DNA of 64,000 bases from assembly GCA_963805045.1 (NCBI GenBank), contig CAWDTC010000021.1:45559-109558 (forward strand). Reading direction: 5' to 3'. Below are positions 43,639 to 62,998 of the stretch, one piece after another. This DNA comes from Candidatus Aminicenantes bacterium (GTDB lineage Bacteria; Acidobacteriota; Aminicenantia; Aminicenantales; Saccharicenantaceae). Below the pieces are notes generated by a model that saw only the letters and a list, made by a program, of their open reading frames with translations, had not been told where the DNA came from and ran no database searches. Positions within the stretch are counted from its first letter, which is position 1. Every line of letters starts with the position of its first letter. A program made the translations under genes and the position numbers.

Positions 43639-43647
43639 GGGAAGCCC

Positions 43648-45502: not shown

Positions 45503-47787
45503 CCATCACCATCGACGGCCGGACGATCGCCTTCGAGGGGCGGCCCATGATCCTCGAGCTCGCCCGGGCCAACGGGATCGACATCCCTTCGCTCTGCGAC
45601 CATCCCGTGCTCGAACCGTACGCCGCCTGCCGCCTCTGCCTGGTCGAGGTCAAGGGCCGCCGGGGCTATGTTCCGGCGTGCAGCACGGCCGCCGAGGAAG
45701 GCCTCGAGGTCCGGACGGCGACGCCGGAGCTCGCGGCCCTGCGGCGCGGGATCCTCGAGCTCATCCTGGCCGAACACCCCAACGCCTGCCTCATCTGCGC
45801 CGAAAAGAAATCCTGTGACGACTACAAGTCGACGATCCGCAAGACAGGCGAAGTCACCGGCTGCGTCCTCTGCCCGGCCAACGGACGCTGCGAGCTGCAG
45901 CGCGTCGCCGAGGCCGTCGGCGTCGAGCGCGTCCATTTCCCCTCCGCGCGGCGGAAGGGCGAGGTCCGGCGGGACGACCCGTTCATCGACCGGGACAACA
46001 GCCTCTGCATCCTCTGCGGCCGCTGCGTCCGCGTCTGCCACGAGGTGAGAGGGGCGACGGTCCTGACCTTCGTCTCCCGCGGCTCCGAGACCGTCGTCGA
46101 CACGGCCATGAGCCGGCGTCTCGTCGAATCGGGCTGCCGCTTCTGCGGCGCCTGCGTCGACGTCTGCCCCACGGGCTCGCTCTCCGAGCGGGCCGTCCGT
46201 TACGTGGGCCTGCCCGATACGGAGAACCCGGCGCTCTGCCCGTTTTGCGGCCAGGGCTGCAGTCTGACGATCGGACTCAGGGACGGCCGGATCCTCGGCT
46301 CCGCCCCCGACCCGAACGGGGCCGCGAACTGCGGCCAGGCCTGCGTCAAGGGGAGGTTCCTGGTGAGAAGCGCCGTCGACCATCCACGCCGCCTTCTCCG
46401 GCCGATGGTCCGCAGGGAGGGCCGGCTCGAGGAGACGAGCTGGGACGAGGCATTGGCGGCCGCGGCGGGGCGGCTGGCTGACATGCCGGCCGGGACGTCC
46501 GCCGTGGCCATGTCCGCGCAGAGCTCCTGTGAGGACCTCTTCGTCCTCCAGCAGTTCGCCGCGGAGATCCTCGGCGCGGGAGCGTTCACGGCTCCCTGGA
46601 ACGGTTCGGTGGCCGCCGCGCTTCGCGGTCTCGGCGGAGCGGCGCGGCCGGCGGTCCCCATGAACGTCCGGTTGTCCGATCTCGCGCGGCGCGGGCGCTG
46701 TCGTGAACTTCGGCGAGGACTTGCCCTTCACCCAGCCGATCGCGGGCGTCGAGGTCACTCGGGCGGTCTGGCACGGGGCCTCCCTCGTGAACGTCGCCCT
46801 CGAAGGCGCCCGGCCTTGCGGCCAGGCCTGCGTCGAGGTCGACCTCCCGTCGGGAGAAGTGACGAGATTCCTTTCGGTCCTGGCCGCGCTCGTCCTCAAC
46901 CGCCGCGGCCGGGCCTCCGTCAAGGGCGCGGGAAGTGTCAAGTTCAAGGCCGGCCTGAAAGCGCTCGATCTGGCCGCAGCGCGCGCCGCGCTCGGGATCT
47001 CCGAGGAGAAACTCGCCGCGATCCCCCGGGCGCTCGAAACTCCCGGGCCGGTCTTCTTCCTCGTCGGACCCGCCTTCCTCAAGGCGGCCGGCGGGCGGAG
47101 CGGGCTGGCCGCCCTCTGGAACCTGGCCGTCCTCACGGGCGGTCGGGTCGTTCCGCTCGACCCCGAAGCCAACGTGCGCGGCGGACTCGAGATCTCCGCC
47201 GCGTTCCCGTCGAAGGCCGCCATGGCCGAGTCCCTGGTCGCGGCCGCCGCCGGGCGAGAGATCCGGGCCCTGTACATCGCGGGACCTTTCCCCAAGTTGG
47301 AGCCGGGCGCGGCCGAACTCGTCATCTTCCAAGGAAGCTATGACGCCGGGAACGCCGAAGCCGCCGACATCGTCTTCCCGGAGACGACGTCATTCGAATC
47401 GGAAGGGACCTTCGTCAACATCGAAGGCCGCTCCCAGCTCTCCCGCCGAGCCGTCGAGCCGCGGGGCGACGCCAGGCCCGGATGGGCGATCTTGGGGAGT
47501 TGGCCGCGAAGATGGGCCGGACGGATTTCGTCCCCTCCTCGGCCGCCGGCATCAGGAAGGACATCGCCCGCGCCGTTCCCGCCCTGGGCGGGCTGGCGGC
47601 GGACGCCGTCCCTCCGGAGGGCGTCTTCCTGGCCGAGGAGCCGAAGACGGCCGGATTCATCGCCGGAGGCAAGGAGGCTCCGGGCCGAGGCGCGGAGACG
47701 GCTCCGGCGCGGCGGGACCCGGATGATTACAAGGGTCTGAACCTGGCCCTTGAGACGAAGAGCCTGAGGCTCGTGCGAGGACGATGA
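45499..47787 (+). CDS. NuoG-like Fe-S subunit with a degenerate molybdopterin-oxidoreductase-like C-terminal domain, with at least 3 frame breaks
   Basis: MTITIDGRTIAFEG..CRLCLVEV (2Fe-2S), CILCGRCVRVC and CRFCGACVDVCP (4Fe-4S), and CPFCGQGCS..NCGQACVKGRF (MopB-type cluster). It continues in ORFs 46703-47740 and 47482-47787. I could not see a Cys/Sec-His catalytic pair. Confidence 0.75.
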
Positions 47788-48621
47788 TGCCCAAGATCCT
47801 GGAGCGACGGCGCCTGGTGCCCAACTTGCACCTCATCGAGGTCCACGCCCCCGAGGTGGCCAGGAAATGCCGGCCCGGGCAGTTCGTCATCGTCATGCCC
47901 GACGAGAAGGGCGAGCGGATCCCTCTGTCGATCGCCGACTGGGACACGGAACGGGGCTCGGTCACGGCCGTCTTTCTCGTCGTCGGCACGACGACGCGGA
48001 AGCTCGCCGCGCTCGGCCCCGGCGCCGAGGTCCCCGTCTTCGTCGGCCCGCTGGGCCGTCCCTCCGAGATCGCCGCGTTCGGAACGGTCGTCCTGGCCGG
48101 CGGCTGCTTCGGCATCGGGGCCCTCTGGCCCGTGGCCCGGGCGCTCAAGGCGGCCGGGAACCGCGTCATCGCCCTCCTCGACGCCAAGGCGGACTATCTC
48201 GTCTACTGGAAGGACCGCTACCTCTCGGTCTGCGACAAGCTCCTGTTCTCGTCGCGGGACTATGCCCTCGGCTCGAAGGAGTTCGTGCCCGGGCCGCTCG
48301 CGGCGGTCCTCAAGGCCGAGGCGCCGGTGGCCCGGGTCATCGCCGTCGGCTGCACCTATCTCATGTACGCCAGCTCCCAGGCCACGCGTCCGCTGGGCAT
48401 CAAGACGATCGTCAGCCTGAATCCGATCATGGTCGACGGGACGGGCATGTGCGGCGCCTGCCGCTGCACGGCGGCGGGCAAGACCAAGTTCGCCTGCGTC
48501 GACGGGCCGGACTTCGACGGCCACGAGGTGGACTGGGACGAGCTTTTCGCGCGGCGGAAATCCTACTTCGACGACGGAGGTCCGCTCGCTCTGCCAATGG
48601 GAGGAGCGCGAGCTCCCTTAG
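47784..48621 (+). CDS. nfnA: NfnA / sulfide-dehydrogenase-beta-like FAD and [2Fe-2S] subunit; the 3' end depends on a frame correction near 48575
   Basis: MMPKILERRRLVPNLHLIEV..RPGQFVIV..RIPLSIAD..MVDGTGMCGACRC..KFACVDGPDFDGHEVDW. With a +1 correction it ends EVRSLCQWEERELP at 48619-48621. Uncorrected, the ORF ends at 48761. Confidence 0.8.
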
Positions 48622-48757
48622 GACGAGGGACGAACAAGGCATGGCCGAGGACAAGAAGGAAAGAGCTGGCCCCGGAAGAAAAGGCACGGCTCCGGGCCGG
48701 GTTCGAGAAGGAATGGCGCAAGGAGCTCCGCAAGGTCGCTTCCGGTCAAAGGAGCGG

Positions 48758-50149
48758 ATGAAGGGCGCCCGCCAGAAGATGCCGGAACGCCCGCCGGATG
48801 TCCGCAACCGCGATTTCAAGGAGGTCAACCTCGGCCTGACGCCGGAGATGGCCCAGGAGGAGGCCCGGCGCTGCCTCGACTGCGCCAATCCCCAGTGCGT
48901 CACCGGCTGCCCCGTGTCCATCGACATCCCGGGCTTCGTCAAGCTCATCGAGGCCGGGCGACTTCCTCGAGGCGGCCTGGAAGCTCAAGGAGACGAACTC
49001 GCTGCCGGCCATCTGCGGCCGCGTCTGCCCGCAGGAATCCCAGTGCGAGGAAGTCTGCACGCTCAAGAAGGCCACCGGGATTTCCGTGGCCATCGGCAAC
49101 CTGGAGCGCTTCGCGGCCGACTTCGAGCGGGGCAGCGGCTCCCTGAAGATCCCGCCCCTGCCGCCGCCGACGGGAAAGAAAGCGGCCGTCATCGGGGCCG
49201 GGCCGGCGGGGCTGACGGTCGCGGGCGACCTGGCCAAGCTCGGCCACAAGGTCACGATCTTCGAGGCCCTCCACGAATCGGGCGGCGTCCTGATCTACGG
49301 CATCCCCGAGTTCCGGCTCCCCAAGGCCATCCTCAAGGCCGAGGTCGATTACCTGCAGGCGGCTCGGCGTCGAGATCCGGACGAGCTTCGTCGTCGGCCT
49401 GACCGCGACGATCGACGACCTGCGGGCCGACGGCTACGAAGCCTTCTTCATCGGCTCGGGCGCGGGACTGCCGAACTTCATGAAGATCCCCGGGCGAGAA
49501 CCTGGTCGGCGTCTACTCGGCCAACGAATACCTGACGCGGGTCAACCTCATGCGGGCCTACGCATTTCCCGAGCTACGACACGCCGGTCTTCAAGGCCAG
49601 GACGGCGGCCGTCATCGGCGGCGGGAACGTCGCCATGGACTCCGTCCGCACGGCCAAGCGGCTGGGCGCCGAGCGGGCCGTCATCGTCTACCGCCGCTCG
49701 CGGACCGAGATGCCCGCCCGGATCGAGGAGATCCACCACGCCGAGGAGGAAGGGATCGAGTTCCAGCTCCTGACGACGCCCGTCCGCTACTTCGGGGACG
49801 AGCACGGACATGTCAGGGCCATGGAATGCCAGAAGATGGGGCTCGGCGAGCCCGACGCTTCGGGCCGGCGGCGCCCCGTCCCGATCGAGGGCTCGGAATA
49901 CACGATGGAGGTCGACCTCGTCGTCTGCGCCATCGGCCAGAGCCCCAACCCGCTCATCCCCCAGACGACGCCCGGCCTCAAGGTCGGCAAATGGGGGAAT
50001 GTCGAGGTCGACTGGACGACCATGGCGACCGAGCATCCCGGGCATCTATGCCGGCGGCGACATCGTCCGGGGCGGGGCGACGGTCATCCTGGCCATGGGA
50101 GACGCCCGGGCTCGCGGCCGCCGAGATCGACAGGTATCTTTGCCGCTGA
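48758..50149 (+). CDS. nfnB: NfnB / GltD-like NADPH-dependent oxidoreductase subunit (FAD, 2x[4Fe-4S]), with about 6 frame breaks
   Basis: MKGARQKMPERPPDVRNRDFKEVNLGL..RCLDCANPQCVTGCPV..ICGRVCPQESQCEEVC..AAVIGAGPAGL..IGGGNVAMD..IYAGGD..AAAEIDRYLCR. The reading steps +1 near 48958, 49366, 49498, 49576, 50032 and 50106. Confidence 0.85.
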
Positions 50150-50359
50150 CCTCGGCCGAGGACCTGAACGACTTTTATAAAGATCCTCCGCCAGACGATA
50201 TTCTTCCTTGATATCGGCAGGGACAGGGGGATCCCTCCCTGGCGATGTTCGAAGCGGTCCGGTGCCTTTCGAAGAAGGCGAACCCGTCCCCCGTCATCGA
50301 GCAAAAATCGTCCGACCCATATCTGGATACGGCAATATGGTTTTGCTCGTCTCAATGCA

Positions 50360-50737
50360 TCAAACACCAATTGAAGTACGGTCATCATTTTCTCGATGAA
50401 AAACTGCCAGATAACAGTCGCTCAAGTAAGTCCTTCGAGCGCTCCCGCCACAGCAATCCGCAAGGGCCGACAGAACGAACATGTGCTCTTCGTTGGGCTT
50501 CAGCTTGCTTTTCTTCGTCCGTCGCGTCTGCCGTCGCTTTGACCATAGCGATGAACCCAATACGTTGTATGGGCCGCGACAGCAAGGAGCAACACCGATC
50601 AGGGTCAGGAGGATCCAGTCCGGAATCACCCACCGGGAGACGTTCAGCTTGACCCCCCACTTGAGTATCCCGAGCACCAACACGACGGCTCCGCATGCCT
50701 CCGCCAAGAACTTGATAAGCGCTCTCCAATAGCTCAT
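50360..50737 (-). CDS. Hypothetical membrane protein, probably broken and continuing toward about 50150 in other frames
   Basis: 125-aa ORF with two hydrophobic helices and a basic linker. Protein-like stretches in two other minus frames follow it (..FDALRRAKPY.., ..PADIKEEYRLAEDLYKS). It is the first gene of the low-GC island. Confidence 0.3.
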   Translation of the reverse strand: MSYWRALIKFLAEACGAVVLVLGILKWGVKLNVSRWVIPDWILLTLIGVAPCCRGPYNVLGSSLWSKRRQTRRTKKSKLKPNEEHMFVLSALADCCGGSARRTYLSDCYLAVFHRENDDRTSIGV

Positions 50738-50797
50738 CTTGACCTCTGGTCAATTGTCATGAGACGAGGCTCCTCCGGCCCATCTCACGCTGATCCC

Positions 50798-51375
50798 CTA
50801 TGAAAAGCCTCTCGCCAAGACTGCCCCAGCCAACAACGGAGTTTCTTGGGCCTTGCACGCTCCCCTTAACGTATCAGCGAAGTGCCATGGCGTCAAGTCG
50901 CCAAGCGAACCGTCCGGCCGGAATTCGTTGTCATCTTCGCGCTACTTCTCTATCGTCTCCGGAGCGTCCTCCATTGACAAGAACCCATTCCCATTCAGGC
51001 ATGTATCCCGAAACGGGCCGTTGACCGACCCGACTGATATTATCGATTCTCGTTAAGGCCCGGCACCGAAGGCCGTCAAAGAGGCTATCGACGACAAAAT
51101 CCATGCTCCATTAGGCGTTAAGTCGGTTCCTCTCCGGCCGGGCTACCCAACGGCTACCCGTGGCATGCCGACGGGAACGCTTGCGCCTCAGGATGCTCGA
51201 CACGTTCCCGCCTCTGGGCAGGCTTCAGAATATTATTGAACTGCCGGTTCTCCTCCTCCCGTTACCTCAAGCAGGGCGAAACGCATTCCTTGATTTTCCC
51301 GACCGGGTTTGCTATACATTTGTTGGGCCTTTTAGGAATCGTGCTTTTCCCCAAATTCTTCGCTTCAGAAAATGA
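50798..51375 (-). mobile_element. Decayed, internally deleted IS3-family transposase relic (OrfA tail plus OrfB fragments)
   Basis: Minus-strand fragments in shifting frames: AQQMYSKPGRENQGM; REEENRQFNNILK (leucine-zipper end of OrfA); LRRKRSRRH..RPERNRLNA*WSMDFVVDSLFDGLRCRALTRIDNISR; FRDTCLNGNGFLSMEDAPETIEK*REDDNEFRPDGSLGDLTPWHFA. The DDE core between them is missing. A TAG sits where the conserved Trp of ..IE.WR.DYN.. belongs. Confidence 0.75.
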
Positions 51376-51397
51376 ACCGAGAATCAGAAGGAGGAAT

Positions 51398-52686
51398 ATG
51401 GTGGCTGATAAATCGTACAATCCATTTGAAATAGCCCAAGCTCAGTTCGACAGAGTGGCTGATCTTCTCGATTTGGACAAGGCGACCCGGGACTTGCTCC
51501 GTTATCCTCTGAGGGAATACCATTTCAGCATCCCCGTTCGCATGGACGACGGCAAGGTCCGGATATTCAGGGGGTTCAGGGTTCAGCATAACGATGCGCG
51601 CGGCCCCGGCAAAGGGGGAATCCGTTTCCATCCGATGGAAAATGTCGATATCGTTCGTGCCCTCGCGATGTGGATGACGTGGAAATGCGCGGTGGTCGAT
51701 ATCCCGTTGGGCGGAAGTAAAGGCGGCGTCGTGTGCGATCCGCACAATTTGAGCCCCCGAGAGCATGAACAGCTCTGCCGCGGCTGGGTCCGCCAGATCG
51801 CCAAGAATGTCGGTCCCCATTTGGATGTTCCGGCTCCCGATGTGATGACGAGCCCGCAACGATGCTGTGGATGCTCGATGAGTTCGAGACGATCCATGGC
51901 GGCAAGTATCCCGGTTTCATCACCGGCAAGCCGGTCAGCATCGGAGGCTCGCAAGGCCGGACGGAAGCGACCGGCTACGGAGTTGTCTTCACGCTCAGGG
52001 AAGCCCTCAAAGATCTGAATCTGAAGGCCGAACAGACTCAAGCCAGTGTCCAGGGATTTGGCAACGTGGCCCAATATGCGATTGAACTGTACCAGCGGAT
52101 CGGCGGGACCGTGACCTGCGTTTCATGCTGGGATCAGGCAGATAAAAGGTCCTACAGCTATCGCAAGAAGCAAGGCGTCGGTCTCGAAGAGCTCTTGAAG
52201 ATCACGGATGCCTTCGGCGGCATTGATCAAAGCGAAGGCCAGGGAGATCGGCTATGAAATACTGCCCGGCGAAGCCTGGATCGAACAGGACGTCGACATT
52301 CTCATCCCGGCCGCTATCGAGAATCAGATCACCGTCGAGAACGTCAACAAAATCGGCAAGCGCGTGAGGATCATTGCCGAAGGGGCCAATGGGCCGACCA
52401 CACCCGAAGCCGACGCCGTGCTCAGGAGCGGGATATTTTCAGGATTCCGGACTTCCTGGCGAATGCCGGCGGCGTGACGTGCAGTTACTTTGAACAAGTC
52501 CAGAGCAACATGAATTATTACTGGGAGAAAGACGAAGTGCTGGCCAAGCTGGATGCCAAAATGACGGCGGCCTATATCGAGGTCCGGGAACTTTCAAGAA
52601 AAAAGAAACTGAATATGAGAGATGCCGCCTATGTCATCTCCATCAATCGGGTCGCTCAGGCATGCCGGGATCGTGGCTGGGTATAG
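51398..52686 (+). CDS. gdhA: Glutamate dehydrogenase (Glu/Leu/Phe/Val dehydrogenase family), with at least 3 frame breaks
   Basis: AAGGAGG then ATG at 51398. [12 protein letters not shown] and [18 protein letters not shown] (catalytic Lys block). Pieces 51862-52257, 52208-52477 and 52474-52686 follow. The first break looks like a lost A in CAAACG near 51858. Confidence 0.85.
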
Positions 52687-52760
52687 CCATTCCGTCCCGG
52701 ACAGATTATGCGGAACTTCAGCGATGCTTGATACAATCGAGACGAGGGGGCTCGAATTCA

Positions 52761-54514
52761 ATGAACAAGCCAAATCAATGGCCATCGGGGGGGCATGACA
52801 TCCAAGAGTTTCAGGGGGAGTTTTTCGATCCCAACCGACGCTTGACCTCGATCGGATCGGGCTCCATCGGCGCCAAGGCCAGCGGATTGGCCTTCATCGA
52901 CGAGGTCTTGAAATCAAAGCTCAACTCCCAGGATTCCGGGCAGATTCAAGTCAGCATTCCTTCCTTGACGGTCATTCGCACCGATGTCTTCGATGCGTTC
53001 CTGAAGCGAAACGGCCTGACCGACATGGCCTATTCAGAATCGGCCAACGACGTGATCGCCCACGCTTTCCAAAAGGCCCTCTTGCCCGCCGAGATCCTCG
53101 GCGACTTGCGCGGCTGATCGAAAAAGTCCACACGCCGCTGGCCATCAGATCTTCCAGCATGCTGGAAGACGCGTTCAATCAGCCCTTCGCCGGCATTTAT
53201 GTCACGAAGATGATCCCCAACAACCAGCCGAGCCCCGATGTCCGCTTTCAGAAGCTGATGGAAGCCATCAAGCTCGTCTACGCCTCCACGTTTTCAAAAT
53301 CGGCCAAGGATTACCTCAAGGCGATCAGGCGTTCCCTGACGACGAAAAGATGGCCGTGATCATCCAGGAGGTGGTCGGTTTGCGTCATGCGGATCGTTTC
53401 TATCCGAACATCTCGGGCATAGCAAAATCGTACAATTTCTATCCTATCGGCCGCTCAAGGCCTGAAGATGGCATGGCCAGCCTGGCCTTGGGCTTGGGAA
53501 AAACGATCGTCGACGGCGGAACATGCTGGACTTACTCGCCGGCCTATCCCGGCATCAGCGCCCCGTGGCCTCGGCCGGCGAGCTCATGGAACAGACTCAA
53601 GACGAATTCTGGGCCATCAACATGGGAAAGCCCCCGGCCTATGACCCTCATTAAAGAAACCGAGTACATGGTGCAGTCGAATCTCTCCGATGCGGAGGCG
53701 GATGGCACGCTGAGCAACATCGCCTCGGTTTATGATGTCCAGGAGGACAGGATTTCCATGGGACTTGACCGCGAAGGGCCGAGGGTGCTCAACTTTGCCG
53801 GCTTGCTCGTCCTGAAAGGAGTTCCCTTGAATGACGTGATCAGTTCTCTCTTGAACATATCTCAACAGGCTCTCGGGGCGCCGGTGGAGATTGAATTTGC
53901 GGCGACGTTCAACCCCTCATCGTTTCGGATTTCTGCAGGTCAGACCGATGGTTGTGCCCGGCGACGAAATTGACATCGCTGAAGAAGAACTCAAAGGGGA
54001 AGACGTCTTCTTAGCGTCCAAAAATGTTTTGGGGAACGGGATCATCGAGACAATCCGGGACATCGTCTACGTCAAGCCGAAAGAGTTTGAAGCCAAGTAC
54101 TCTCCGCGCATCGCTCTGGAATTGGAGACGGTGAACAGAGGACTTCTTGACAAAGGACGGCCTTACTTGCTCATTGGATTCGGCCGATGGGGGAGTTCCG
54201 ATCCCTCGGCTGGGATACCGGTCGAATGGGGACAGGTCTGCGGCGCCAAGGTGATCGTGGAAGCGACCGGGCCGACGATGAAGGTCGAGCTGAGCCAAGG
54301 ATCGCATTTTTTCCACAATCTCAGCAGTTTCGAAGTCTGCTATTTCTGTGTTCCGTATTCAGGTGAATATTCGATCAACTGGGAATGGCTAAGCCGGCAG
54401 AGGGGTGAACAGGAGACTCAGTTTATTCGCCATGTCGTCTTGCCGACCCCCTTGCAAGTTAAAGTCGACGGAAGAAGCGGCCGGGGCGTCATTCGCACGC
54501 CCCGATCTGCCTAA
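52761..54514 (+). CDS. PEP/pyruvate-binding (PPDK_N ATP-grasp) domain protein, paralogue 1, with at least 3 frame breaks
   Basis: IGSGSIGAKASGLAFI, LAIRSSSMLEDAFNQPFAGIY, MAVIIQEVVG, VEIEFAA.., then a C-terminal module LLIGFGRWGSSDP..SQGSHFFHNL. Pieces 52662-53117, 53159-53359, 53350-53973 and 53891-54514. Confidence 0.75.
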
Positions 54515-54534
54515 GGGAGACATCCATAAACATC

Positions 54535-57500
54535 ATGGACAAATCCGTCGAGAACCTGCTCTACGCTCTCAAAGAGCGGGCCAAAGAGCTGAACTGTCTT
54601 TATGAAGTCGAAGGGCTCTTCAACAAGCCTGATGCGTCCCTAACGGCGATTCTGGAGGGAATCGTCCGTGCCATTCCGGCAGGATGGCAGTATCCGGACG
54701 TCTGCCAGGCAAGAATCACCTACGGCGATCACTCGTTTCAGTCGCCGAACTTCAAAGAGACACCGTGGGTTCAAAGCGCCAATATCACCGTCCAGGACGA
54801 AGTCGTCGGAAAAATAAGCGTCTATTATACCGAAGAGAGACCCCGCCGACGAAGGCCCGTTCTTGAGGGAAGAACGTAAGCTCATCGAGACCATTGCCGA
54901 CCGCCTCGAACGCCGAATCTTCTTCGAGAGATCAAGGTCGTCTTCGAAAAGCAAACGGTTGGCAAGGAACGCGCGGTCAATGTTGGGTCGTCCTCGACCT
55001 GTTGAGAAGGACGGACTTGAAGCTCTTAACGCACGTGACCAGAAAGATGCTCAACTATCTGTCATGGTCCGGGATCGCGGAAGCCAACACGCTGTTGGAG
55101 AAGATCAGCCCCGCCTCGATGACGGATCAAGATGACGTTCTTCAGGGCATGAATCGGCCATCGCTGTCAGAGGCCGCCAACGACTCTGACGAATCTACGA
55201 TGATATTTTCAGGATGGCGAACAGGTACTTGGGCGAGAAGGAAGTCTTGAACAGCATTCAGAAGTGGATCATGGAGGATCGCTCCAATTTTCTCGTCAAG
55301 GTCCTCGAGGATCCCGGTTCAACCCTGGCGCAGATCACCAATGCCATCGAGCGATTTCATCACCTGATCCCTCATGGCCTGAACCTGCCCTCCCCGAGGG
55401 AAAAGGGCTTCCGCGTCTCGCTCATTCGAAAGCTCCTCAACGACGATCTGCACTTCATCAATGTCGCGAAGAAGTATCTTGAGGTCGACGATTTCCATGA
55501 TCTGTTGCACCATATCATCTTCCCGGCGGAGTCAGGGAAGACTCGGCGGCAAGGGCTCGGGCCTGTTTCTGGCGTCCCAGATCTTAAAAAAGTCTACAAT
55601 GGACAATGAACCCTCCGCAAGATCAAAACCCCGAAGACCTGGTATCTCACCTCCGACGGCATCATGAATTTCATCAGCCATAACGACCTCGAAGAGATCG
55701 TGGAACAGAAGTACGAGGATATTGACGCGGGTACGGCAGGAATATCCGTATGTCGTCCATGTTTTCAAGAATTCCTCCCTGCCGCCGAAATCGTCAATGC
55801 GCTCTCGGTCGCGCTTGACGATCTCGGCGAGCGTCCTCTCATCGTCAGGAGCTCGAGCCTCCTGGAGGACCGCATCGGAACATCGTTCGCCGGCAAATAC
55901 AAGAGCTTGTTCATCGCCAACCAGGGCAAAAACGGGAGAGGTTGCCGCGCTCATGGACGCCATTGCGGAAGTGTACGCATCGATCTTCAGCCCTGATCCC
56001 ATCGAGTACCGGATTGAGCACGGCATGATCGATTTCAACGAGGAAATGGGCATCCTCATCCAGGAAGTCGTCGGGAAAAAAGTCGGCCATTATTTCATGC
56101 CGGCCTTTGCCGGAGTCGCCTTCTCTCGCAATGAATTCCGTTGGTCGCAGCGCATCCGAAGAGAAGATGGACTGGTGCGAATGGTGCCGGGATTGGGAAC
56201 GCGCGCCGTCGATCGGTTCAGCGATGACTATCCGATTCTGGTCGCCCCGGGGCAGCCGAACCTCCGCGTAAATGTCACCATCGATGAAAAAATACACTAC
56301 TCGCCGAAGAAGATCGATGTCATCAATTTCAGAGACGAATTCATTCGAGACCATCGAAATCCGAGAGCTTCTCAAGATGTACGGAGACGAATATCCGTTG
56401 ATCCACCAGATCGGCTCCGTCTTTCGGAATGACCGGCTGGACCCGCTCGGACCACTAGGGACTGATTTCGAGAAGAGCCGTCGTCCTGACATTCGACGGC
56501 CTCATCAACAACACGCCGTTCATGGAGCAAATTCGCTCCATTCTCAAGGTTCTCGAAACCGAGCTGGGCAACTCCCGTTGATATCGAATTCGCCCATGAC
56601 GGGACAAATCTGCATCTGCTGCAGTGCCGGCCGCAAAGTCACGCCAAAGCCTCTCAGCCGCCCGCAATTCCGAGGGACGTTCCGAAAGACAGAATCCTTT
56701 TCACGGCCAACCGGTATGTCACGAATGGGACCGTTTCGGGCATCACCCACATCGTTTACATCGATCCGCAAAGATACGGAGAACTGACGAACCGGGCCGA
56801 TCTCCTGGCCGTGGGCCGGGCCGTGAGCAAGCTGAATCAAATCCTGCCGAAACGCCAGTTCATTCTCATGGGGCCCGGCCGCTGGGGCAGTCGAGGAGAT
56901 ATCAAACTTGGCGTGAGCGTTTCCTATTCGGATATCAACAATACGGCGATGATCATCGAAATCGCCCGGAAACAGAAAGACTACGTGCCCGAGCTCTCCT
57001 TCGGCACGCATTTCTTCCAGGACTTGGTTGAGGGCTCGATCCGTTACCTTCCCCTTTACCCGGATGACAGGGGAGTCGTGTTCAATGAGGAATTTCTTGC
57101 GAAATCAAAAAACATTCTGCCCGACCTTCTCCCGGAATATTCTTCTCTTTCCGACACCATTCGCGTGATCGAGCTGGCGGACTCTGCGGACGGTCAGGTC
57201 TTCCAGGTCCTCATGAACGGCGAGAGAGATGAGGCGGTCGCCATCTTGGGGAAATCCTCGGCGGAGACGACCATGGCCGCCGAAAAACCCCGGGAGAGGA
57301 ACCCCAAGAAAAGAGAGACGACGCTCACTGGCGATGGCGCCTCAGCAGCGTCGAACATATTGCGGCCAGGATGGACGCTCAGCGGTTCGGCGTGAAGGCC
57401 TTCTATATCTTCGGGAGCACCAAAAACGCGACGGCGGGCCCTGAAAGCGATATCGACATCCTGATCCATTTCAACGGGACGGACACACAAAGGAAGGATC

Positions 57501-57865
57501 TGATGAGCTGGCTCGAAGGATGGAGCCTTTCTTTGAGTGAGGCCAATTACCTGCGGACCGGGCACAAAACGGACGGGTTGCTCGATATCCATATCGTGAC
57601 GGATGAGGATATCCAGAGCAGGACCAGCTTTGCGACCAAGATCGGCGCCATCACGGACGCCCCCAGGTCGCTGCCGATGGGCAAGGACTTAAAAGAGCCG
57701 TCCGCGGGTCAGATAAGCTCTCTCGTCGAGGCTTCCAAGTCATCGAGCCTGAAGCGGACCAGCGCCAGTTCCGGGCCGTCGTGCGCGGCGGAAAAGAGAT
57801 GGGTCCGGCCGATCTTGTCTTTCCAGGAACCGGTGATCCGAGCCGATTCGTGGACGTGTCCGTGA
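54535..57865 (+). CDS. Large multidomain protein with an N-terminal KELNCLY-type sensor-like module, a PPDK_N ATP-grasp domain (paralogue 2) and a C-terminal minimal nucleotidyltransferase domain. It has at least 7 frame breaks. The fusion of the last domain and the 3' end are uncertain.
   Basis: LKERAKELNCLYEVEGLF..GWQYPDVCQARI..DEGPFLREERKLIETIADRLE; GKLGGKGSGLFLA; LIVRSSSLLEDRIGTSFAGKYKS; MGILIQEVVG; DIEFAHDG..LLQCRP; ILMGPGRWGSRGD..SFGTHFFQDL; then KAFYIFGSTKNATAGPESDIDILIHF. The listed stop at 57865 would overlap the convergent gene by 157 nt. Confidence 0.65.
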
Positions 57866-58674
57866 AGAGTCAAGAGCGGTCGATATGTTTCAATGAACCG
57901 TCGAACGCCAATGCTCCCGACGTGGAGATCCAGCGGCACATGATCGACCATCTGGCCGTCCAAGGCGGCCCGGTCGAGGTTGGTTTGATACGGGGGGCTG
58001 TGAAAGAGGAAGATCGCGCGAGAGAGATCGCCCCGTCCGACGAGGTGGTCAAGATCAGCCTTGATGGTGGCCTTTCTCAGGTCGGAATCCGGGACCGGGA
58101 CCGAGCGCGTTCCCTCTTCCGGGCTGATGCAGTCCGGGTCGACATATCGCGAGACATCATAACGTTCCCAGTCTTTCAAGCTGAACGGCGTGGGCGGGAC
58201 GCAGGCATAGCCGAAAACCGAGAATTCCGACAGCCGGACCCGGCGATGATGGATATATTCCCATAGGCCCCGCCGGCTTCCGGCCAGGATCGCCGCTTCC
58301 TCGGAGCGCGGGTCGTCGTTTCCCAGGATCAGAAAGACCCTGGGATAGTCCTTCCCGAGCGCCTTCTTCAATCGCGCGAATCTCGGCGCCAAGAAGTCCT
58401 TGACAAAATCGGGGAAAGCCTCATGCGTCGATGAGAGCGCGAGCAGATAGGATGGGAGGAGATCCCCTCCGAGGAACACCGCCCTCGGGCGCTCCTGTCT
58501 GATCGCCTGAAAAAGCTTCTCGTAACGATCGATGCGTCCGTGCAGGTCGGAGGCAAAGAAGCACGTCGATGGGTCAGAGGACCGATCGCCGGAGATCCTG
58601 TCGGAACCTCTTTTTCGCATGGAAGCATACTCGCCCGGGCCGCCGCCGGAGCCAATCGCCCGTGGCGAGTCCAT
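57709..58674 (-). CDS. Calcineurin-like metallophosphoesterase
   Basis: Intact ORF; the start may be MRKRG at 58620. It has FFASDLHG, FLGGDLL, ILGNDD, LFHSPP and TLHGHVHE metal-binding blocks. Confidence 0.8.
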   Translation of the reverse strand: MDSPRAIGSGGGPGEYASMRKRGSDRISGDRSSDPSTCFFASDLHGRIDRYEKLFQAIRQERPRAVFLGGDLLPSYLLALSSTHEAFPDFVKDFLAPRFARLKKALGKDYPRVFLILGNDDPRSEEAAILAGSRRGLWEYIHHRRVRLSEFSVFGYACVPPTPFSLKDWERYDVSRYVDPDCISPEEGTRSVPVPDSDLRKATIKADLDHLVGRGDLSRAIFLFHSPPYQTNLDRAALDGQMVDHVPLDLHVGSIGVRRFIETYRPLLTLHGHVHESARITGSWKDKIGRTHLFSAAHDGPELALVRFRLDDLEASTRELI

Positions 58675-58804
58675 TATAACTCAATCCCCGTGACGGAGGG
58701 CCCGTACCCCTTCTCCCATGCCGCGGCCTGCCCCCTCTCCTGCCCGGAAACGGCCTTGCGACGCCCCGGGCATTCTCGGGACAGGGCTTCGGAAAACTAA
58801 GACG

Positions 58805-58880
58805 TGGCGCCCCCGACGGGATTCGGACCCGTGTTGCCGCCTTGAAAGGGCGATGTCCTAGGCCTCTAGACGACAGGGGC
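58805..58880 (-). tRNA. tRNA-Glu (anticodon TTC), CCA encoded, with an atypical T-loop
   Basis: The reverse complement GCCCCTGTCGTCTAGAGGCCTAGGACATCGCCCTTTCAAGGCGGCAACACGGGTCCGAATCCCGTCGGGGGCGCCA aligns along its length with a canonical bacterial tRNA-Glu. The T-loop reads TCCGAAT instead of TTCGAAT. Confidence 0.85.
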
Positions 58881-58900
58881 GGAAGAGGAGAATGAGCCGT
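58879..58900 (+). repeat. Right copy of the exact 22-bp direct repeat GCGGAAGAGGAGAATGAGCCGT
   Basis: It spans the first 2 nt of tRNA-Glu, the 12-nt spacer and the last 8 nt of tRNA-Lys. It is identical to 42417-42438. Confidence 0.95.
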
Positions 58901-58964
58901 GCTGGACTCGAACCAGCGACACCCGGCTTAAAAGGCCGGTGCTCTCCCTCTGAGCTAACGGCCC
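58893..58964 (-). tRNA. tRNA-Lys (anticodon TTT), CCA not encoded
   Basis: Acceptor GGGCCGT/ACGGCTC (one G-U pair), anticodon loop CTTTTAA, T arm GCTGG-TTCGAGT-CCAGC, 72 nt. Confidence 0.88.
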
Positions 58965-58977
58965 GGAAAAGCGTTCT

Positions 58978-59005
58978 ATTATACCGAACAGGGACAAGGA
59001 ATCAA
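58978..59005 (-). promoter_or_regulatory. Sigma-70-type promoter of the tRNA-Lys/tRNA-Glu pair
   Basis: Minus strand reads TTGATT, a 16-nt spacer, then TATAAT, ending 13 nt upstream of the tRNA-Lys 5' end. Confidence 0.5.
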
Positions 59006-59036
59006 CATGTCGCGAGGACGCCGTCCCCCCGCGGCC

Positions 59037-59726
59037 TCAGGCGACCGGCTCGAACCGGATGATGACCCACCGGCTCGGCAGCTTCTGCCCCGCGTCGGTC
59101 TTGACGTCGTACATCCGCATCGGCAGCTTGTAGTTCTTGACCGCGCCCTGCTTGGTCTTGATCTTGACCACGACGTCCTTGGAGTGGACGTTGCCGCTCA
59201 GGTCGCGGACACCGGCCAGCTCGCGGAGACCGAGCGAGAACAGCGTGATCTGTTCCTCCATCGAGGCGGCGTTCTTGGCGTCCGTGTAGGCCTTCTTGAA
59301 CTCCTTCATCTTGCCGTACTCTTCGTCGTACTTGGCCTGGGTCTCGTCGACCTTCTTCTTGGCGATGGCCTTGGCCCCGGCCGTCCGGGCCAGGTCGAGC
59401 TCATCCTTGGCGTTGGCGAGGGCCGCGTCGGCGTCCATGGTCGGGCCGATCTGGCCGTCCTGGGCCTTCTTGGCCTCCATTTCCTTCTTGTTCAGGTCGG
59501 AGAGGGTGACGGGATCGGTCTTTTCCGGGCTGACGCTGACGATCTCCCAGGACGCGACTTCCCACTGGGCCGGCTCGAGGGCCATGGAGGCCATGGTTGA
59601 GTTGTCGTTCATCGTGACGGCGTTGAAATAACGGGACAGGAGCCCCTGTTCAGGGTTTGACGTGCAGCTTTGGACCGCGAAAAAGGCGATCAAGATCCCG
59701 AGAACGACGAGTGTCTGTTTTCTCAT
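59037..59726 (-). CDS. Lipoprotein, hypothetical
   Basis: ATG at 59726 after GAAGGAGG. MRKQTLVVLGILIAFFAVQSC lipobox, with a charged coiled-coil middle. Confidence 0.6.
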   Translation of the reverse strand: MRKQTLVVLGILIAFFAVQSCTSNPEQGLLSRYFNAVTMNDNSTMASMALEPAQWEVASWEIVSVSPEKTDPVTLSDLNKKEMEAKKAQDGQIGPTMDADAALANAKDELDLARTAGAKAIAKKKVDETQAKYDEEYGKMKEFKKAYTDAKNAASMEEQITLFSLGLRELAGVRDLSGNVHSKDVVVKIKTKQGAVKNYKLPMRMYDVKTDAGQKLPSRWVIIRFEPVA

Positions 59727-59923
59727 GAAGCCTCCTTCTTCGAGTATTCTCCGCAATATTCCTGGCCCCATCTTAACCTCATTCGGGAGGAAAAAGCAAG
59801 CCCTAAAATGCCGGTTGGAGGCCGGCCCGCCCTCAGGCGCCGCCTCGTCCGCCCCCTCCGCGGAGGCTTTGTTTGCCGCCCCGATTGTGCTAGACTACTA
59901 CGTTCATCCGTGGGGGTAGAATC

Positions 59924-61734
59924 ATGGACCACTTCAAAGACATCATCGCCAGGCACAAGAAGGACCCGGGACGCCTCCTGGACATCCTCGCCGACATCCA
60001 GGCCCGGGACGGCCGCGTCCCCGAAACGGCCGTGGCCGAGGTCGCCGGGGCCCTCAAGCTCTCCGAGGCCGACGTCCGCGGCGTCGTCACGTTCTATCAC
60101 TTCTTCTCGCTCGCTTCGCGTGGACGCGCGGCCGTCTATCTGAACGACTCCATCACCTCGCGGATGAACGGCCGGACCGCCGTGGCCCGGGCCTTCGAGG
60201 AGGAGGCCGGCTGCCGCTTCGGCGAGGTCTCCGCCGACGGCCTCGTCGGGCTCTTCCCGACGTCCTGCATCGGCATGAACGACCAGGAGCCCTCGGCCAT
60301 CGTCGGCGGTGTCGTCTTCACCTGCTCTGACTCCCGACAAGGCCCGGGCCATCGTCCGCGGCCTGCGGGCGGGCACACCCGCCCAAAGCCTCGTCGGGAC
60401 CTACGGCGACGGCGCCAATCAGTCCGAGCTCGTCCGGGCCATGGTCTCGAACAACATCCGGAAGCGAGGGCCGGTCCTCTTCGGCCCGTTCGAATCCGGG
60501 TCCGCCGTCAAGGCGGCCCTCTCGATGCAGCCCGACATGGTCATCGACGAGATCAAGCGTTCGGGCCTCCTCGGCCGCGGCGGCGCGGGCTTCCCGACCG
60601 GCCTCAAGTGGGAGTTCTGCCGGAAGGAAAAAGGCGATCGCCACTACGTCGTCTGCAACGCCGACGAGGGCGAGCCCGGGACCTTCAAGGACCGGGTCAT
60701 CCTGACCGAGCTGCCGCGCCTCCTCTTCGAGGGCATGGCCGTCGCCGGCTACGCCGTCGGCGCCCGCGAAGGGATCCTCTACCTCCGGGCCGAGTATTCC
60801 TACCTCAAGCCCTATCTCGAGTCGGTCCTCGAGGCCCTCCGCCGCGAACACGTCCTGGGCAGGAAGGTCGCCGGCTCGGCCGGCTTCGACTTCGACATCG
60901 CCATCAAGTCGGGCGCCGGCGCCTACGTCTGCGGCGAGGAATCGGCCCTCCTGGAATCGGCCGAGGGACAGAGGGGAGAGCCGCGCGACAGGCCGCCGTT
61001 CCCTGTCCAGTTTGGCTATCTCGGCCAGCCGACGACCGTCAACAACGTCGAGACGCTGGCCGCGGCCGCGCAGATCCTGGTCCACGGCGCCGCCTGGTTC
61101 ACATCCTTCGGAATTGCCGAAATCGGCCGGCACGAAGCTCCTCAGCGTCTCCGGCGACTGCGCCGCTCCGGGCGTCTACGAGGTTGAGTTCGGCCTGACC
61201 GTCCAGGAGCTCTTGGACATGGCCGGGGCCAAGGACGTCCGGGCGGTCCAGGTCGGCGGGCCCTCCGGGACGTGCCTCTCGAGGTCCGGCTTCGGCCGGA
61301 GGATCAGCTTCACGGACCTGGCGACGGGCGGCTCCGTCATCGTCTTCGGACGGGACCGGGACATCTTCGAGGTCGTCGAGAACTTCATGGAGTTCTTCGT
61401 CGAGGAATCCTGCGGCTGGTGCACGCCCTGCCGGGCGGGGAACGTCCTCCTCAAGAGAAAGTTCGAAAAGGTCGTCGCCGGCCGGGGTGCCGTCCAGGAC
61501 CTCAAGGACCTCGAGGACTGGGGGAAGCTCGTCAAGGCCACCAGCCGCTGCGGCCTCGGCCAGACCTCGCCCAACCCCATTCTGACGACGCTCCAGAACT
61601 TCCGCGAGCTCTACGAGGTGAAGATCCAGCAGGGAGTGGATTTCGTCCCCGATTTCGACCTCCGGACCGCGCTCCAGGACGGCTGCACCGCTGCCAACCG
61701 GCAGCCCGAGTGCAAGGAGTCCCTCCATGACTGA
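59924..61734 (+). CDS. hoxF: HoxF-type diaphorase subunit (NuoE-like N-terminal domain fused to a NuoF-like FMN/NAD/[4Fe-4S] domain), with two frame breaks near 60320 and 61110
   Basis: Pieces 59924-.., 60309-61187 (LLGRGGAGFPTGLKW, VCNADEGEPGTF) and 61012-61734 (ESCGWCTPCR, CGLGQTSPNP). The NuoE-like part reads YLNDSITSRMNG and SCIGMNDQEP, so most [2Fe-2S] cysteines are replaced. Confidence 0.8.
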
Positions 61735-62432
61735 GATCCGCTTCACCATCGACGGCAAGGAGTGCCTGGCCAAGCCGGGCCAGACCATCGTCGAGGCCGC
61801 CAAGGCCAACGGCGTCTACATCCCCGTCCTCTGCCACTACGAGGGGCTCAAGCCCGTCGGCAGCTGCCGCGTCTGCACGGTCCGCGTCGGCGGGCGGTAC
61901 ATGGCCGCCTGCACCCAGCCTGTGACCGAGGGCATGGCCGTCGAGAACACGGCCCCGGACCTCGAGGACATGCGCCGCGCCCTCATCGAGATGCTCTTCG
62001 TCGAGGGCAACCACATGTGCCCGACCTGCGAGAAGAGCGGCAACTGCGAGCTCCAGGCCCTGGCCTACCGCTACCGGATCATGGCCCCGCGCTTCCCTTA
62101 CCTGTTCCCCGTCCGAGAGCTCGACGCCTCGAGCCCGAAGATCATGCTCGAGCGCAACCGCTGCATCCAGTGCCTCCGCTGCGTCCGGGGCGTCCGGGCC
62201 AAGGACGGGCGGAAGGTCTTCGCCGCCCAGGACCGGACCGGCCGGGTGACGATCGAGGCGGACCGCGACCTCGCCGCCCGCCTCACCGATGCGGAGGCCC
62301 GCCGGGCCATGGATCGTCTGCCCCGTCGGCGCCATCCTGAAGAAGGAGGTCGGCTTCGCCGTGCCCATCGGGAAGCGCAAGTTCGATACGAAGCCCATCG
62401 GCAGCGACATCGAGGAAGGGCCCGCGAGGTGA
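61727..62432 (+). CDS. hoxU: HoxU-type Fe-S subunit (NuoG N-terminal-like), with one frame break near 62310
   Basis: MTEIRFTIDGKECLA..CRVCTVRVGG..CPTCEKSGNCELQ..CIQCLRCVR. After correction it reads CPVGAILKKE..GSDIEEGPAR with a stop at 62430-62432. Confidence 0.8.
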
Positions 62433-62436
62433 GATC

Positions 62437-62983: not shown

Positions 62984-62998
62984 AGGGTGAACAGACGC

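Follow-up and report, generated by a model that had tools for sequence, protein, structure and literature searches.

Among described systems, those closest to the locus reported here are tRNA-associated genomic islands, ancient inter-phylum xenologous gene clusters and, for the proteins it encodes, VadK (Rv1127c), the truncated PPDK by which Mycobacterium tuberculosis tunes methylcitrate-cycle enzymes and which phosphorylates itself on a histidine (PMC13400623). The locus shares with tRNA-associated islands a break in base composition, a location at the 3' end of a tRNA gene, absence from this place in its close relatives, a short direct repeat containing a tRNA 3' end (that of tRNA-Lys) and a mobile-element relic inside, and as a genomic island it is an ordinary kind of thing. 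It departs from them in that it has no integrase or excisionase, its repeat brackets not the low-GC part but a larger, mostly high-GC block of housekeeping-type redox genes, the left repeat adjoins a shortened gene instead of lying in the context of a tRNA remnant, and the low-GC cargo is old and common to other species, where it occupies other sites. Ancient inter-phylum clusters resemble this cargo in their nesting in another phylum's clade, donor-like third-codon composition (GC3), patchy range in the recipient family and co-residence with a native paralogous pair; the cargo differs from them in the lack of amelioration despite near-saturating synonymous divergence, and in that it keeps moving within the recipient genus. 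What history could account for all these features? The explanation that we consider probable combines an ancient acquisition of a four-gene module from a donor of FCB type, its later arrival at the present site within the larger block, and frameshifts that are errors of the assembly.

The window (the whole stretch analysed) comprises 64,000 nucleotides of a Candidatus Aminicenantes genome, here designated G000. GC content drops less than 100 nt past the end of nfnB: the segment 50150-57700 has 55.1% GC versus a genome median of 67.8% (7.5-kb windows; robust z -6.4), a level as low as which is reached by only 1.6% of 945 genome windows, and its tetranucleotide distance is 0.455 versus a median of 0.142 (top 1.7%). 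Both profiles bear out the composition break that an earlier reading of the letters alone (the sequence-only reading) had placed at the end of nfnB. The trough that it described is real too, although its figure of roughly 50% was slightly too low, the whole span 50150-58804 having 55.9% GC. It was right that the metallophosphoesterase gene is intermediate (60.8%) and that backbone composition returns after the tRNA pair, except that 59-64% GC persists from 59.0 to 59.9 kb and the backbone level of 66-70% is regained only at about 59.9 kb. Several further low-GC stretches of the same genome are located at contig ends.

The low-GC core is one discrete four-gene module of 7.4 kb (51273-58685). 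It opens with an upstream region that moves with it (51273-51397, plus strand) and forms the left limit of homology in every relative, the alignments to the genomes G002, G004 and G005 and the locus L041 all beginning at 51273-51283. Three plus-strand genes follow, namely a glutamate dehydrogenase (GDHi; 51398-52686), in which both ELFV domains are present (PF02812 and PF00208, found on four fragments), a PPDK_N ATP-grasp protein of 584 aa (52761-54514) with a His-bearing C-terminal domain (GRWGS...SQGSHFFHN), and a fusion protein of about 1,060-1,100 aa (54535-57697) whose end was placed by homology with L041. Convergent with the last of these runs gene 4, a calcineurin-like metallophosphoesterase (57709-58674, minus strand; start probably at 58620) that matches PF00149 above the cut-off (1.3e-9) and has no PDB relative by sequence. 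A junction piece of 119 bp (58686-58804), without counterpart in the relatives searched, connects the module to tRNA-Glu(UUC) (58805-58880, minus strand), beside which tRNA-Lys(UUU) lies on the same strand (58893-58964). On the left, a small membrane-protein gene (50178-50803, minus strand; 54.6% GC) is 81-82% identical in nucleotides to the segment right after nfnB in G002 and G004, and the relic of an IS3-family insertion sequence without an intact transposase frame (50806-51272, minus strand) makes the module's left junction. Pfam thereby confirms the contents listed by the sequence-only reading, i.e. a GDH, two PPDK_N genes, one of them with a nucleotidyltransferase tail (NTP_transf_2), and a Metallophos gene. 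Its identification of a decayed IS3-family relic also holds, given the homology to multi-copy elements in the genomes G021 and G003, the G021 copy of which carries rve/rve_3 integrase-core ORFs, and a weak match to the IS3 transposase on a Hymenobacter plasmid. Whereas intact elements of this kind encode rve/rve_3 DDE domains, only some 470 bp remain here, with no transposase frame or recognizable ends: no ORF longer than 75 aa has a Pfam match, and terminal inverted repeats were looked for and not found.

The module is found in five other species of two genera, the genus of G000 (g1) and its sister genus (g3), the copies named being G002, G004, G005, G009 and L041. A core of 6.4 kb aligns end to end with those of G002, G004, G005 and G009 at 79-88%, and in a separate alignment of the full module nucleotide identity is 84-88% to congeners and 78% to the sister genus. 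The ORFs are intact in these relatives (the GDH orthologues have 428 aa), the module's GC of 53-59% contrasts with flanks of 63-69%, a difference that recurs wherever it sits in a high-GC Aminicenantes genome, and its chromosomal place differs in almost every species of the genus. The gene order recurs in genomes labelled as more than 10 phyla, and 47 loci carry both ATP-grasp genes (PPDK1 and PPDK2) together with the phosphoesterase, mostly in the same order and in nearly all cases with an adjoining GDH. The PPDK1 family alone comprises at least 8,000 clusters, whose names go no further than 'PEP/pyruvate-binding domain-containing protein' or 'hypothetical'. The module is strongly conserved, with a mean column identity of 62-63%, and phosphoesterase orthologues share 73-82% identity within the genus and its sister and some 60-70% across many phyla. 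Within its own family (f1) the phosphoesterase was found only in g1 (six of the seven relatives searched) and g3, and not in 11 searched genomes of the family's other five genera. The other lineage of the module, present in G021, likewise lies in a low-GC zone of a genome with 65% GC.

Are the interrupted genes of the locus signs of decay? Genes of the island and of the flanking backbone are alike split by indels of 1-2 nt, which leave the metallophosphoesterase as the only uninterrupted module gene, and indels specific to G000 and not divisible by three occur at 3.33 per kb in nfnAB, 3.15 in the island and 2.93 in hox. The genome is a draft MAG in 60 contigs with a marker completeness of 55%. 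The frameshifts in the island genes are shown by this to be assembly-wide errors, not decay. The membrane-protein gene that had been called broken exists, but its breakage is due to assembly indels, six of 1 nt each setting it apart from G002, where the ORF is intact (199 aa), and gene breaks as a biological feature of the island do not survive the equal indel densities. The artefact is worth knowing because the same error-rich assembly is expected to yield many false pseudogene calls.

Two exact copies of a 22-bp sequence from the tRNA-Glu/tRNA-Lys spacer (GCGGAAGAGGAGAATGAGCCGT), in direct orientation, enclose 16.46 kb of DNA, a block whose right end is the module. The left copy (42417-42438), 7.7 kb to the left of 50150, adjoins the shortened end ('Aend') of a small membrane-protein gene; to the right copy (58879-58900), tRNA-Glu contributes 2 nt, the spacer 12 nt and the 3' end of tRNA-Lys 8 nt. 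No further copy exists in the G000 genome, and the relatives have the sequence nowhere but at the corresponding spacer of G005 and G006. The block begins with a rubrerythrin-like gene (R; 42437-42969, minus strand, 153 aa; PF02915 on the intact G002 and G009 orthologues), followed by NuoEFG-like genes and nfnA-nfnB (43163-50149, plus strand; interrupted by assembly indels), the membrane ORF, the IS relic and the module. R is a neighbour of the module in other species as well, lying upstream of GDH in G002 and next to the phosphoesterase in G009. The NuoEFG-like/nfnAB genes held by the block are high in GC (68.9%).

Comparison with relatives indicates what happened at the site. In G002 and G004, nfnAB, the membrane ORF, Aend and tRNA-Glu stand in a row and the module is elsewhere; because nfnB and tRNA-Glu are nearly adjacent there, DNA must have been inserted at the site in G000. 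Synteny therefore supports an insertion as such, but the 8.6-kb low-GC span was rejected as the inserted unit, since the difference from the nearest relatives comprises either the module (7.4 kb) or the 16.46-kb block. In G005 and G006 the site consists of A, Aend and tRNA-Glu with nothing between and the block is absent, and in G005 and G009 four extra genes separate nfnB from the module. In trees of rpoC and of hox, the partners of G000 are G005/G006. The nfnA region gives the opposite result, with G000 next to G002 (support 99; 91% nucleotide identity) and far from G005/G006 (77%), and the module tree joins G000 to L041, G002 and G004 with moderate support of 74 and 85. This affinity of block genes to a different clade of the genus suggests that, on the contig as assembled, the block may have moved here by relocation or within-genus transfer. 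The module would then have reached its present site in G000 inside the 16.46-kb block, after an IS element had joined it to nfnAB. One attB x attP event would not produce the geometry of the repeat, as the left copy adjoins the shortened gene and not a second tRNA-Glu. As the sequence-only reading had noted for the left boundary, no duplicated tRNA-Glu 3' segment, nor any other tRNA-derived repeat, is present at 50150, and its placement of the island at a tRNA 3' end is upheld by homology with all relatives, which resumes at 58805-58807, exactly at the 3' end of tRNA-Glu that faces the island. Pfam searches of the listed ORFs of the low-GC stretch revealed no integrase or recombinase, the only mobile-element trace being the IS3 relic, which lacks a DDE frame.

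Where, then, did the module come from? Outside its own family its nearest relatives are FCB-group bacteria and not other Aminicenantales, and for this reason a horizontal origin is likely. In a concatenated tree, g1, g3 and the locus L044 form one clade (support 100) nested among rows labelled Ignavibacteriales, Bacteroidota, Calditrichaeota and KSB1 (plus one labelled Anaerolineales), with six other Aminicenantales in a distant clade; all four single-gene trees agree on this nesting, and an approximately unbiased (AU) test rejects a single Aminicenantes clade (p 1.4e-5, dlnL 1024), the group having been named after the tree was seen. The RpoC N-domain is 94% identical to that of G021 and 65% to that of L044's genome, whereas the module proteins show the opposite, with 54-68% identity to G021 and 70-86% to L044. 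The contig of L044 has 52-58% GC throughout and carries a T9SS-sorting-domain protein next to the module; its label, like the others in the trees, is a MAG taxonomy, backed by this one gene for the contig and by one RpoC comparison for the bin. GC3 is 0.59-0.72 in the module genes as opposed to 0.82-0.89 in native genes, which include the same-family paralogues GDHp and PPDK2p that the genomes of g1 and g3 also keep as a native high-GC GDH/dikinase pair; in L044 it is 0.58-0.71 in the module and 0.63-0.65 in neighbouring genes. The trees, the AU test, the RpoC contrast and GC3 agree in indicating that a donor of FCB type, with about 54% GC, passed the module on in the distant past; the common ancestor of g1 and g3 would have taken it up, and the module would have retained the donor's third-codon composition ever since. 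At four-fold sites, G002 and G009 share only 56-59% identity in the module genes, and 58% in nfnB (a yardstick of age with a non-vertical history of its own). The module shows no visible amelioration despite this heavy synonymous turnover, which is awkward for a simple model of old transfer plus mutation pressure.

The same evidence bears on the other histories that can be proposed. A foreign island that entered G000 alone and recently by integration at the tRNA-Glu 3' end, and that is in decay today, would explain the sharp GC break, the IS relic at the left junction, the synteny break exactly at tRNA-Glu and the 'empty' nfnB-tRNA-Glu arrangement of G002 and G004. By the standard that the sequence-only reading set for its own refutation, it fails, because congeners and the sister genus have the module in synteny, with unbroken genes and just as low a GC content (78-88% nucleotide identity in five other species of two genera); the closest relatives of its genes are those of congeners, the frameshift density is no higher than in the backbone, and there is neither a tRNA-Glu-derived repeat at 50150 nor an integrase, leaving this history very little credence. 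Of the horizontal acquisition advanced by the sequence-only reading, the foreign origin remains likely, as the expected affinity to another phylum was found in the FCB group, and its recent, genome-private character falls. Could the contig instead merge two co-occurring congeneric populations, with the block or the module misplaced? An error-rich draft MAG (3 indels per kb, 60 contigs), the grouping of block genes with another clade of the genus than their flanks and the other low-GC stretches at contig ends would suit such a chimera. It would demand, however, two false joins within a contig that continues as ordinary backbone for 42 kb on one side and 10 kb on the other, and an indel-error rate that happens to be the same in block and flanks; a long-read assembler would not be misled by as little as 22 bp, and the left junction has an extra exact spacer of the recipient type (that of G000/G005/G006, not of G002/G004) fused to the shortened gene and for this reason resembles a product of recombination and not an overlap error. 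We regard a chimera as quite improbable.

A third history dispenses with transfer: the module would be ancestral in Aminicenantales, its two old paralogous lineages differentially lost and its low GC maintained by selection acting on the module, for instance on expression or regulation, instead of being a mark of the donor. The unameliorated GC3 in the face of such divergent four-fold sites, the low-GC zone around the other lineage in G021 and the very wide distribution and strong conservation of the module all speak in its favour. They have to be set against the nesting of the g1/g3 copies with a T9SS-bearing FCB contig in a mostly FCB-labelled clade (concatenated and all four single-gene trees), the rejection of Aminicenantes monophyly, the inverse course of module and RpoC identities, the missing phosphoesterase in the 11 searched genomes of the family's other five genera and the match of module GC3 to that of L044's neighbouring genes, and on balance we think a purely vertical descent unlikely.

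What might the module do? The intact orthologues of its two ATP-grasp genes match PF01326 (PPDK_N; 4.5e-32 and 2.2e-58), and the best folds are rifampin phosphotransferase RPH (5hv3), PEP synthase (2ols) and PPDK (1kbl), with Foldseek alignments to full-length PEP synthase and PPDK that equal or exceed the whole 584-residue model of gene 2 (AlphaFold, pLDDT 87). Unlike these enzymes, the module proteins have no Pfam match to the PEP-utilizers swivel domain (PF00391) and none in Pfam or NCBIfam to the PEP/pyruvate TIM-barrel beyond their N-terminal part, the NCBIfam PEP-synthase scores of 55-62 bits being far under the cut-offs of 598-883; they carry instead a conserved C-terminal domain (some 170 aa) in which one His is invariant (SQGSHFFHN, with His516, or SFGTHFFQDL). 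Gene 3 additionally encodes a sensor-like N-terminus, then a helical region, the PPDK_N ATP-grasp, the His-bearing domain and an MNT-type minimal nucleotidyltransferase. PADLOC matched no anti-phage defence system, the nucleotidyltransferase giving only weak generic matches to the candidate PDC-S09. By architecture the proteins can be likened to VadK, in which a dikinase is also cut down to its ATP-binding and His-bearing parts and is associated with the control of a central metabolic enzyme and not with PEP/pyruvate interconversion; VadK differs in that it keeps a recognizable PPDK phospho-His domain and consists of one protein only, which neither carries a nucleotidyltransferase nor has a phosphoesterase partner or a link to GDH (PMC13400623). 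From architecture and neighbourhood it is possible, and we put it forward only tentatively, that the module is a covalent regulator of the co-encoded GDH or of a partner. The two truncated dikinases would autophosphorylate on the conserved His of the C-terminal domain, and together with the nucleotidyltransferase and the phosphoesterase they would switch the GDH or partner covalently on a signal perceived by the N-terminal domain of the gene 3 protein. The existence of the native two-gene pair, GDHp and PPDK2p, implies that the link between GDH and dikinase is old. GDHi of G000 keeps the catalytic Lys (AAA) in its GGSKGG motif (GGxKGG); in all the other Aminicenantes copies examined this residue is S, E, N, H or T. 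A bolder and rather doubtful conjecture is that the 7.4 kb form a self-contained regulatory cassette that circulates between phyla and within genera, holds its own composition in the face of mutational pressure from the host and whose GDH, once the cassette had arrived in Aminicenantes next to the native GDH/dikinase pair, has repeatedly lost the catalytic Lys to become a non-catalytic partner; if so, G000 would preserve the still-catalytic ancestral state of the GDH.

These findings imply that low GC can be an old signature, and the rule of thumb by which low GC means recent import fails here because the signature is common to two genera and has not ameliorated. The neighbourhood from tRNA-Val to tRNA-Glu/tRNA-Lys is a rearrangement hot spot within one genus, where redox operons (NuoEFG-like/Nfn, Hox and a sensory-hydrogenase kinase block) are shuffled between species. 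The locus also provides a clean natural experiment, in which a transferred copy resides beside a native paralogous pair in the same genomes, and its cargo is an uncharacterized module that spans thousands of protein clusters and many phyla and is tied to GDH, a central enzyme of carbon and nitrogen metabolism.

The drop in GC content that a sequence-only reading of this DNA had placed directly after nfnB is real: in 500-nt windows, composition falls from 66-73% GC in nfnAB to 53-58% from 50.0 kb on and holds there until 57.7 kb, the metallophosphoesterase gene has ~61%, and 66-70% is regained no earlier than ~59.9 kb. Measured against the whole host assembly (G000; 2.73 Mb, 60 contigs, 66.8% GC), the stretch 50150-57700 has 55.1% GC (robust z -6.4), with 1.6% of 7.5-kb windows equally low, and its tetranucleotide profile is likewise discontinuous, falling in the top 1.7% of distances from the genome mean. 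The gene content had been named correctly and both tRNAs lie where they had been placed; Rfam, run over 42-60 kb, returned these two tRNAs and nothing else, and a scan for sigma-70 promoters and terminators gave sites not in excess of shuffles. The idea of a horizontally acquired island survives as to foreign origin and a real insertion at a tRNA, and fails as to age, decay and the limits of the unit. Further low-GC stretches of G000 occur on its contigs at C9:85001-107500, C30:1-17500 and C56:77501-95000, and also at C28:1-12500, C37:17501-32500 and C41:35001-45000; three have ~38-43% GC and lie at contig ends, several others have ~55%, and each may be an island, a prophage or a mis-join.

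In 50150-57700, ORFs do not exceed 260 aa: the glutamate dehydrogenase gene (GDH, 51398-52686) is split into four fragments, as is the first ATP-grasp gene, and the second is split into at least seven. The backbone is equally cut, the NuoG-like gene and nfnB each shifting frame several times, and in three stretches within 46240-63248 of the window, each aligned to at least three relatives, the density of 1-2-nt indels private to G000 is 3.33 per kb in nfnAB, 3.15 in the island and 2.93 in hox. These are mainly insertions in 68%-GC DNA (12 of 13 and 9 of 13) and mainly deletions in 55%-GC DNA (17 of 23). Because their density is alike in island and backbone, the island decays no faster than the rest, and island-specific pseudogenization can be dismissed; an alternative genetic code is likewise an improbable cause of the short ORFs, each break being an indel of 1-2 nt when set against three or more relatives. 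The orthologues in G002 and G005 (host's genus) and in G009 (sister genus) run unbroken (428-465, 584, 1101-1143 and ~300 aa) and, judged from these alignments, the gene breaks are assembly errors. The marker completeness of G000, 55% at 1% contamination, fits a frameshift-riddled long-read consensus and is probably itself an artefact of the private indels.

What, then, is the unit? A 6.4-kb core aligns end to end with G002, G004 and G005 of the same genus and with G009; over the full module, identity in a separate alignment is 88.0, 87.1, 83.6 and 78.4%, respectively, and that of the phosphoesterase in these four genomes is 73-82%. The homologous stretch has 53-59% GC in all four, between flanks of 63-69%. 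Homology always begins at 51273-51283 and always ends at 58567-58685, so that the unit is not the 8.6-kb low-GC span proposed earlier, but a 7.4-kb module of GDH, a 584-aa PPDK_N ATP-grasp protein, a ~1,100-aa PPDK_N protein with a nucleotidyltransferase tail and a convergent metallophosphoesterase (57709-58674). Neither inverted nor direct repeats were found at its own ends (51273 and 58685). Scanning one genome per species for the phosphoesterase confirmed 558 loci; among the best 80 of these, pooled with the loci of three relatives, 47 hold both ATP-grasp genes and the phosphoesterase complete, nearly all with GDH alongside and mostly in identical order. Their labels include Calditrichota, KSB1, Eisenbacteria, Phycisphaerae/Planctomycetota, Bacteroidota, Ignavibacteriota, Gemmatimonadota, Latescibacterota, Zixibacteria, Krumholzibacteriota, Elusimicrobia and others. 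The ATP-grasp proteins of the module are unusually conserved (mean column identity 62-63% among 40 sequences), and the 584-aa protein alone accounts for at least 8,000 clusters at 90% identity in the protein collection, named at most 'PEP/pyruvate-binding domain-containing protein' or 'hypothetical'. Our literature search found no description of a module combining GDH, PPDK_N, nucleotidyltransferase and metallophosphoesterase, nor of horizontal transfer of GDH in Aminicenantes.

In a concatenated tree of the two ATP-grasp proteins and the phosphoesterase (1,931 columns), the copies of the host's and the sister genus form, with a Bacteroidota-labelled contig carrying the module (L044), a clade with support 100, nested among rows labelled Ignavibacteriales, Bacteroidota, Calditrichaeota and KSB1, plus one labelled Anaerolineales; six other Aminicenantales (G019, G027, G021, L109, L113, L120) fall in a distant clade. 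Enforcing a single Aminicenantes clade, a group named after the tree had been seen, lowers the log-likelihood by 1,024 units (AU p 1.4e-5), and all four single-gene trees, that of GDH included, return the same five-row clade with the same FCB-labelled next neighbours. Core-gene similarity runs in the opposite direction to module similarity: the RpoC N-domain of G000 is 94% identical to that of G021 and 65% to that of the genome of L044, whereas its module proteins share 54-68% with G021 and 70-86% with L044. The L044 contig has 52-58% GC over all of its 21 kb, with a gene for a T9SS-sorting-domain protein directly adjoining the module, and GC3 there is 0.58-0.71 in the module and 0.63-0.65 in its neighbours. 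In G002 and G009, GC3 is 0.59-0.72 in module genes and 0.82-0.89 in native ones, among them the paralogues of GDH (GDHp) and of the long ATP-grasp gene (PPDK2p). Within the family, searches detected the phosphoesterase in the host's genus (six of seven relatives searched) and the sister genus alone, and 11 genomes from five other genera gave no match. Most genera of the family possess the native pair at backbone GC (in G000 at C11:61493-66093, locus L143, 68% GC; in G009 at L144:5180-9724), which consists of the 428-aa GDHp and a PPDK_N protein of 1,061 aa, to which Pfam assigns no nucleotidyltransferase domain; GDHp directly adjoins the transferred module in G002 and G004. Together, the trees, the AU test, the RpoC contrast, GC3, the patchy phosphoesterase and the native pair are read as reflecting a single acquisition of the module from an FCB-type donor on the stem of the two genera. 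By the low identity of four-fold sites between G002 and G009 (56-59% in module genes, 58% in nfnB), this transfer would be old; between G002 and L044, just 36-39% of such sites are identical. Over that span, the GC3 of the module has not shifted toward the host value.

The gene neighbourhood differs in almost every species compared. In G002 and G004, the NuoEFG-like genes and nfnAB are followed by a 199-aa membrane ORF, a 102-aa gene (Aend), tRNA-Glu, tRNA-Lys and hox, so that nfnB and the tRNA are near-adjacent; in these two genomes, the module itself is found at another place. In G005 and G006, gene block A, Aend, both tRNAs and hox follow one another with nothing between. In G005 (L031:8687-15648) and G009 (L032:4258-11196), nfnB and the module are separated by four extra genes, for a response regulator, a 695-aa fusion of an [FeFe]-hydrogenase-like domain with a histidine kinase, an RR-PAS-kinase and a 754-aa NfnA-NfnB fusion (PRK12778); tblastn of the G000 assembly found neither the hydrogenase-kinase nor the fused Nfn. 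At L041, the module lies beside tRNA-Ala, G001 retains only its phosphoesterase, and G003 and G007 have no part of it. The intact membrane ORF of G002 (L033:4137-4736), to which the membrane-protein gene after nfnB in the window (50178-50803) shows six single-base indels, has 45% GC and a GC3 of 0.45; it is a stronger compositional outlier than the module and travels with nfnAB.

In G000, the left part reads A, a shortened Aend, a 22-bp repeat, a rubrerythrin-like gene, NuoEFG-like/nfnAB and the membrane ORF, and the right part an IS3 relic, the module, 119 bp, tRNA-Glu and the second repeat copy, inside the spacer and the 3' end of tRNA-Lys. The two copies of the repeat, GCGGAAGAGGAGAATGAGCCGT, are exact, occur nowhere else in the genome, are of the G000/G005/G006 spacer type, not that of G002/G004, and bracket a block of 16.46 kb (42417-58900; 61.6% GC). 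With rpoC at 96% identity to G005 versus 90% to G002/G004, and the hox flank at 87-88% to G005/G006 versus 80%, the closest relatives of G000 are G005 and G006. Its nfnA region, however, shares 91% identity with G002 and 77% with G005/G006, and the tree of that region (window 43163-50149 with L002-L009) is incongruent with rpoC and hox, so that the NuoEFG-like/nfnAB genes, too, would have departed from vertical descent within the genus; in the module tree, L041, G002 and G004 share a group with G000 that excludes G005. Since the affinity of the block's genes is unlike that of its flanks, the block presumably came to this site by relocation, or was received from a different clade within the genus, and the IS element would mark where nfnAB and the module were joined. 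A contig chimera is a less likely account of its position: the additional spacer copy, of recipient type and fused to a shortened gene, speaks for genuine recombination. Had one attB x attP event at tRNA-Lys placed the block, a copy of tRNA-Glu should stand at its left end; none does, and the left junction is not reproduced. No integrase is found in the block. A circular permutation is conceivable though unproven, the G000 order R-N-IS-M (rubrerythrin-like gene, nfnAB, IS, module) being the G009 order N-S-M-R, with S the genes between N and M, opened between M and R.

In AlphaFold models (pLDDT 87 and 79), the folds nearest to both ATP-grasp parts are those of rifampin phosphotransferase, PEP synthase and PPDK, whereas the long protein's tail most resembles MNT-type minimal nucleotidyltransferases. 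Both proteins lack the PEP/pyruvate barrel and a Pfam-recognizable swivel domain, and share a ~170-aa domain with invariant GRWGS and G-[ST]-H-F-F motifs; sequence searches of the PDB with the 584-aa protein and the phosphoesterase gave no matches. The module is no known defence system, PADLOC having detected none. A KELNCLY-type, second sensor-like module lies in G000 at C21:37056-37550, ~8 kb upstream of the window start; it matches the N-terminus of the long ATP-grasp protein at 34% over 165 aa (tblastn) and adjoins NuoEFG-like genes in G002 and G004. In the GGxKGG motif of the module's GDH (near 51673-51720), compared across the window and L034, L039, L031, L032, L041, L105, L109, L120, L037 and L040, the catalytic Lys is kept in G000 (AAA), in the FCB copies and in GDHp, and is replaced by S in G002 and G004, E in G005, N in G009, H in L041, and S, S, T, T and T in the other Aminicenantales clade; from these residues, two lineages of the module within a single order seem to have lost it convergently.

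In its logic, the module comes closest, among characterized systems, to the M. tuberculosis protein VadK, a truncated PPDK which phosphorylates itself on His422 and tunes enzymes of the methylcitrate cycle (PMC13400623). Given the constant link to GDH and the existence of a native GDH/dikinase pair, we would very tentatively predict, as the likeliest role, a sensor-gated covalent control of GDH, or of the flux around it, which the phosphoesterase would reverse. Seen as an island, the stretch is an ordinary kind of thing; its interest rests in the cargo and in the stubborn composition that this cargo has kept.
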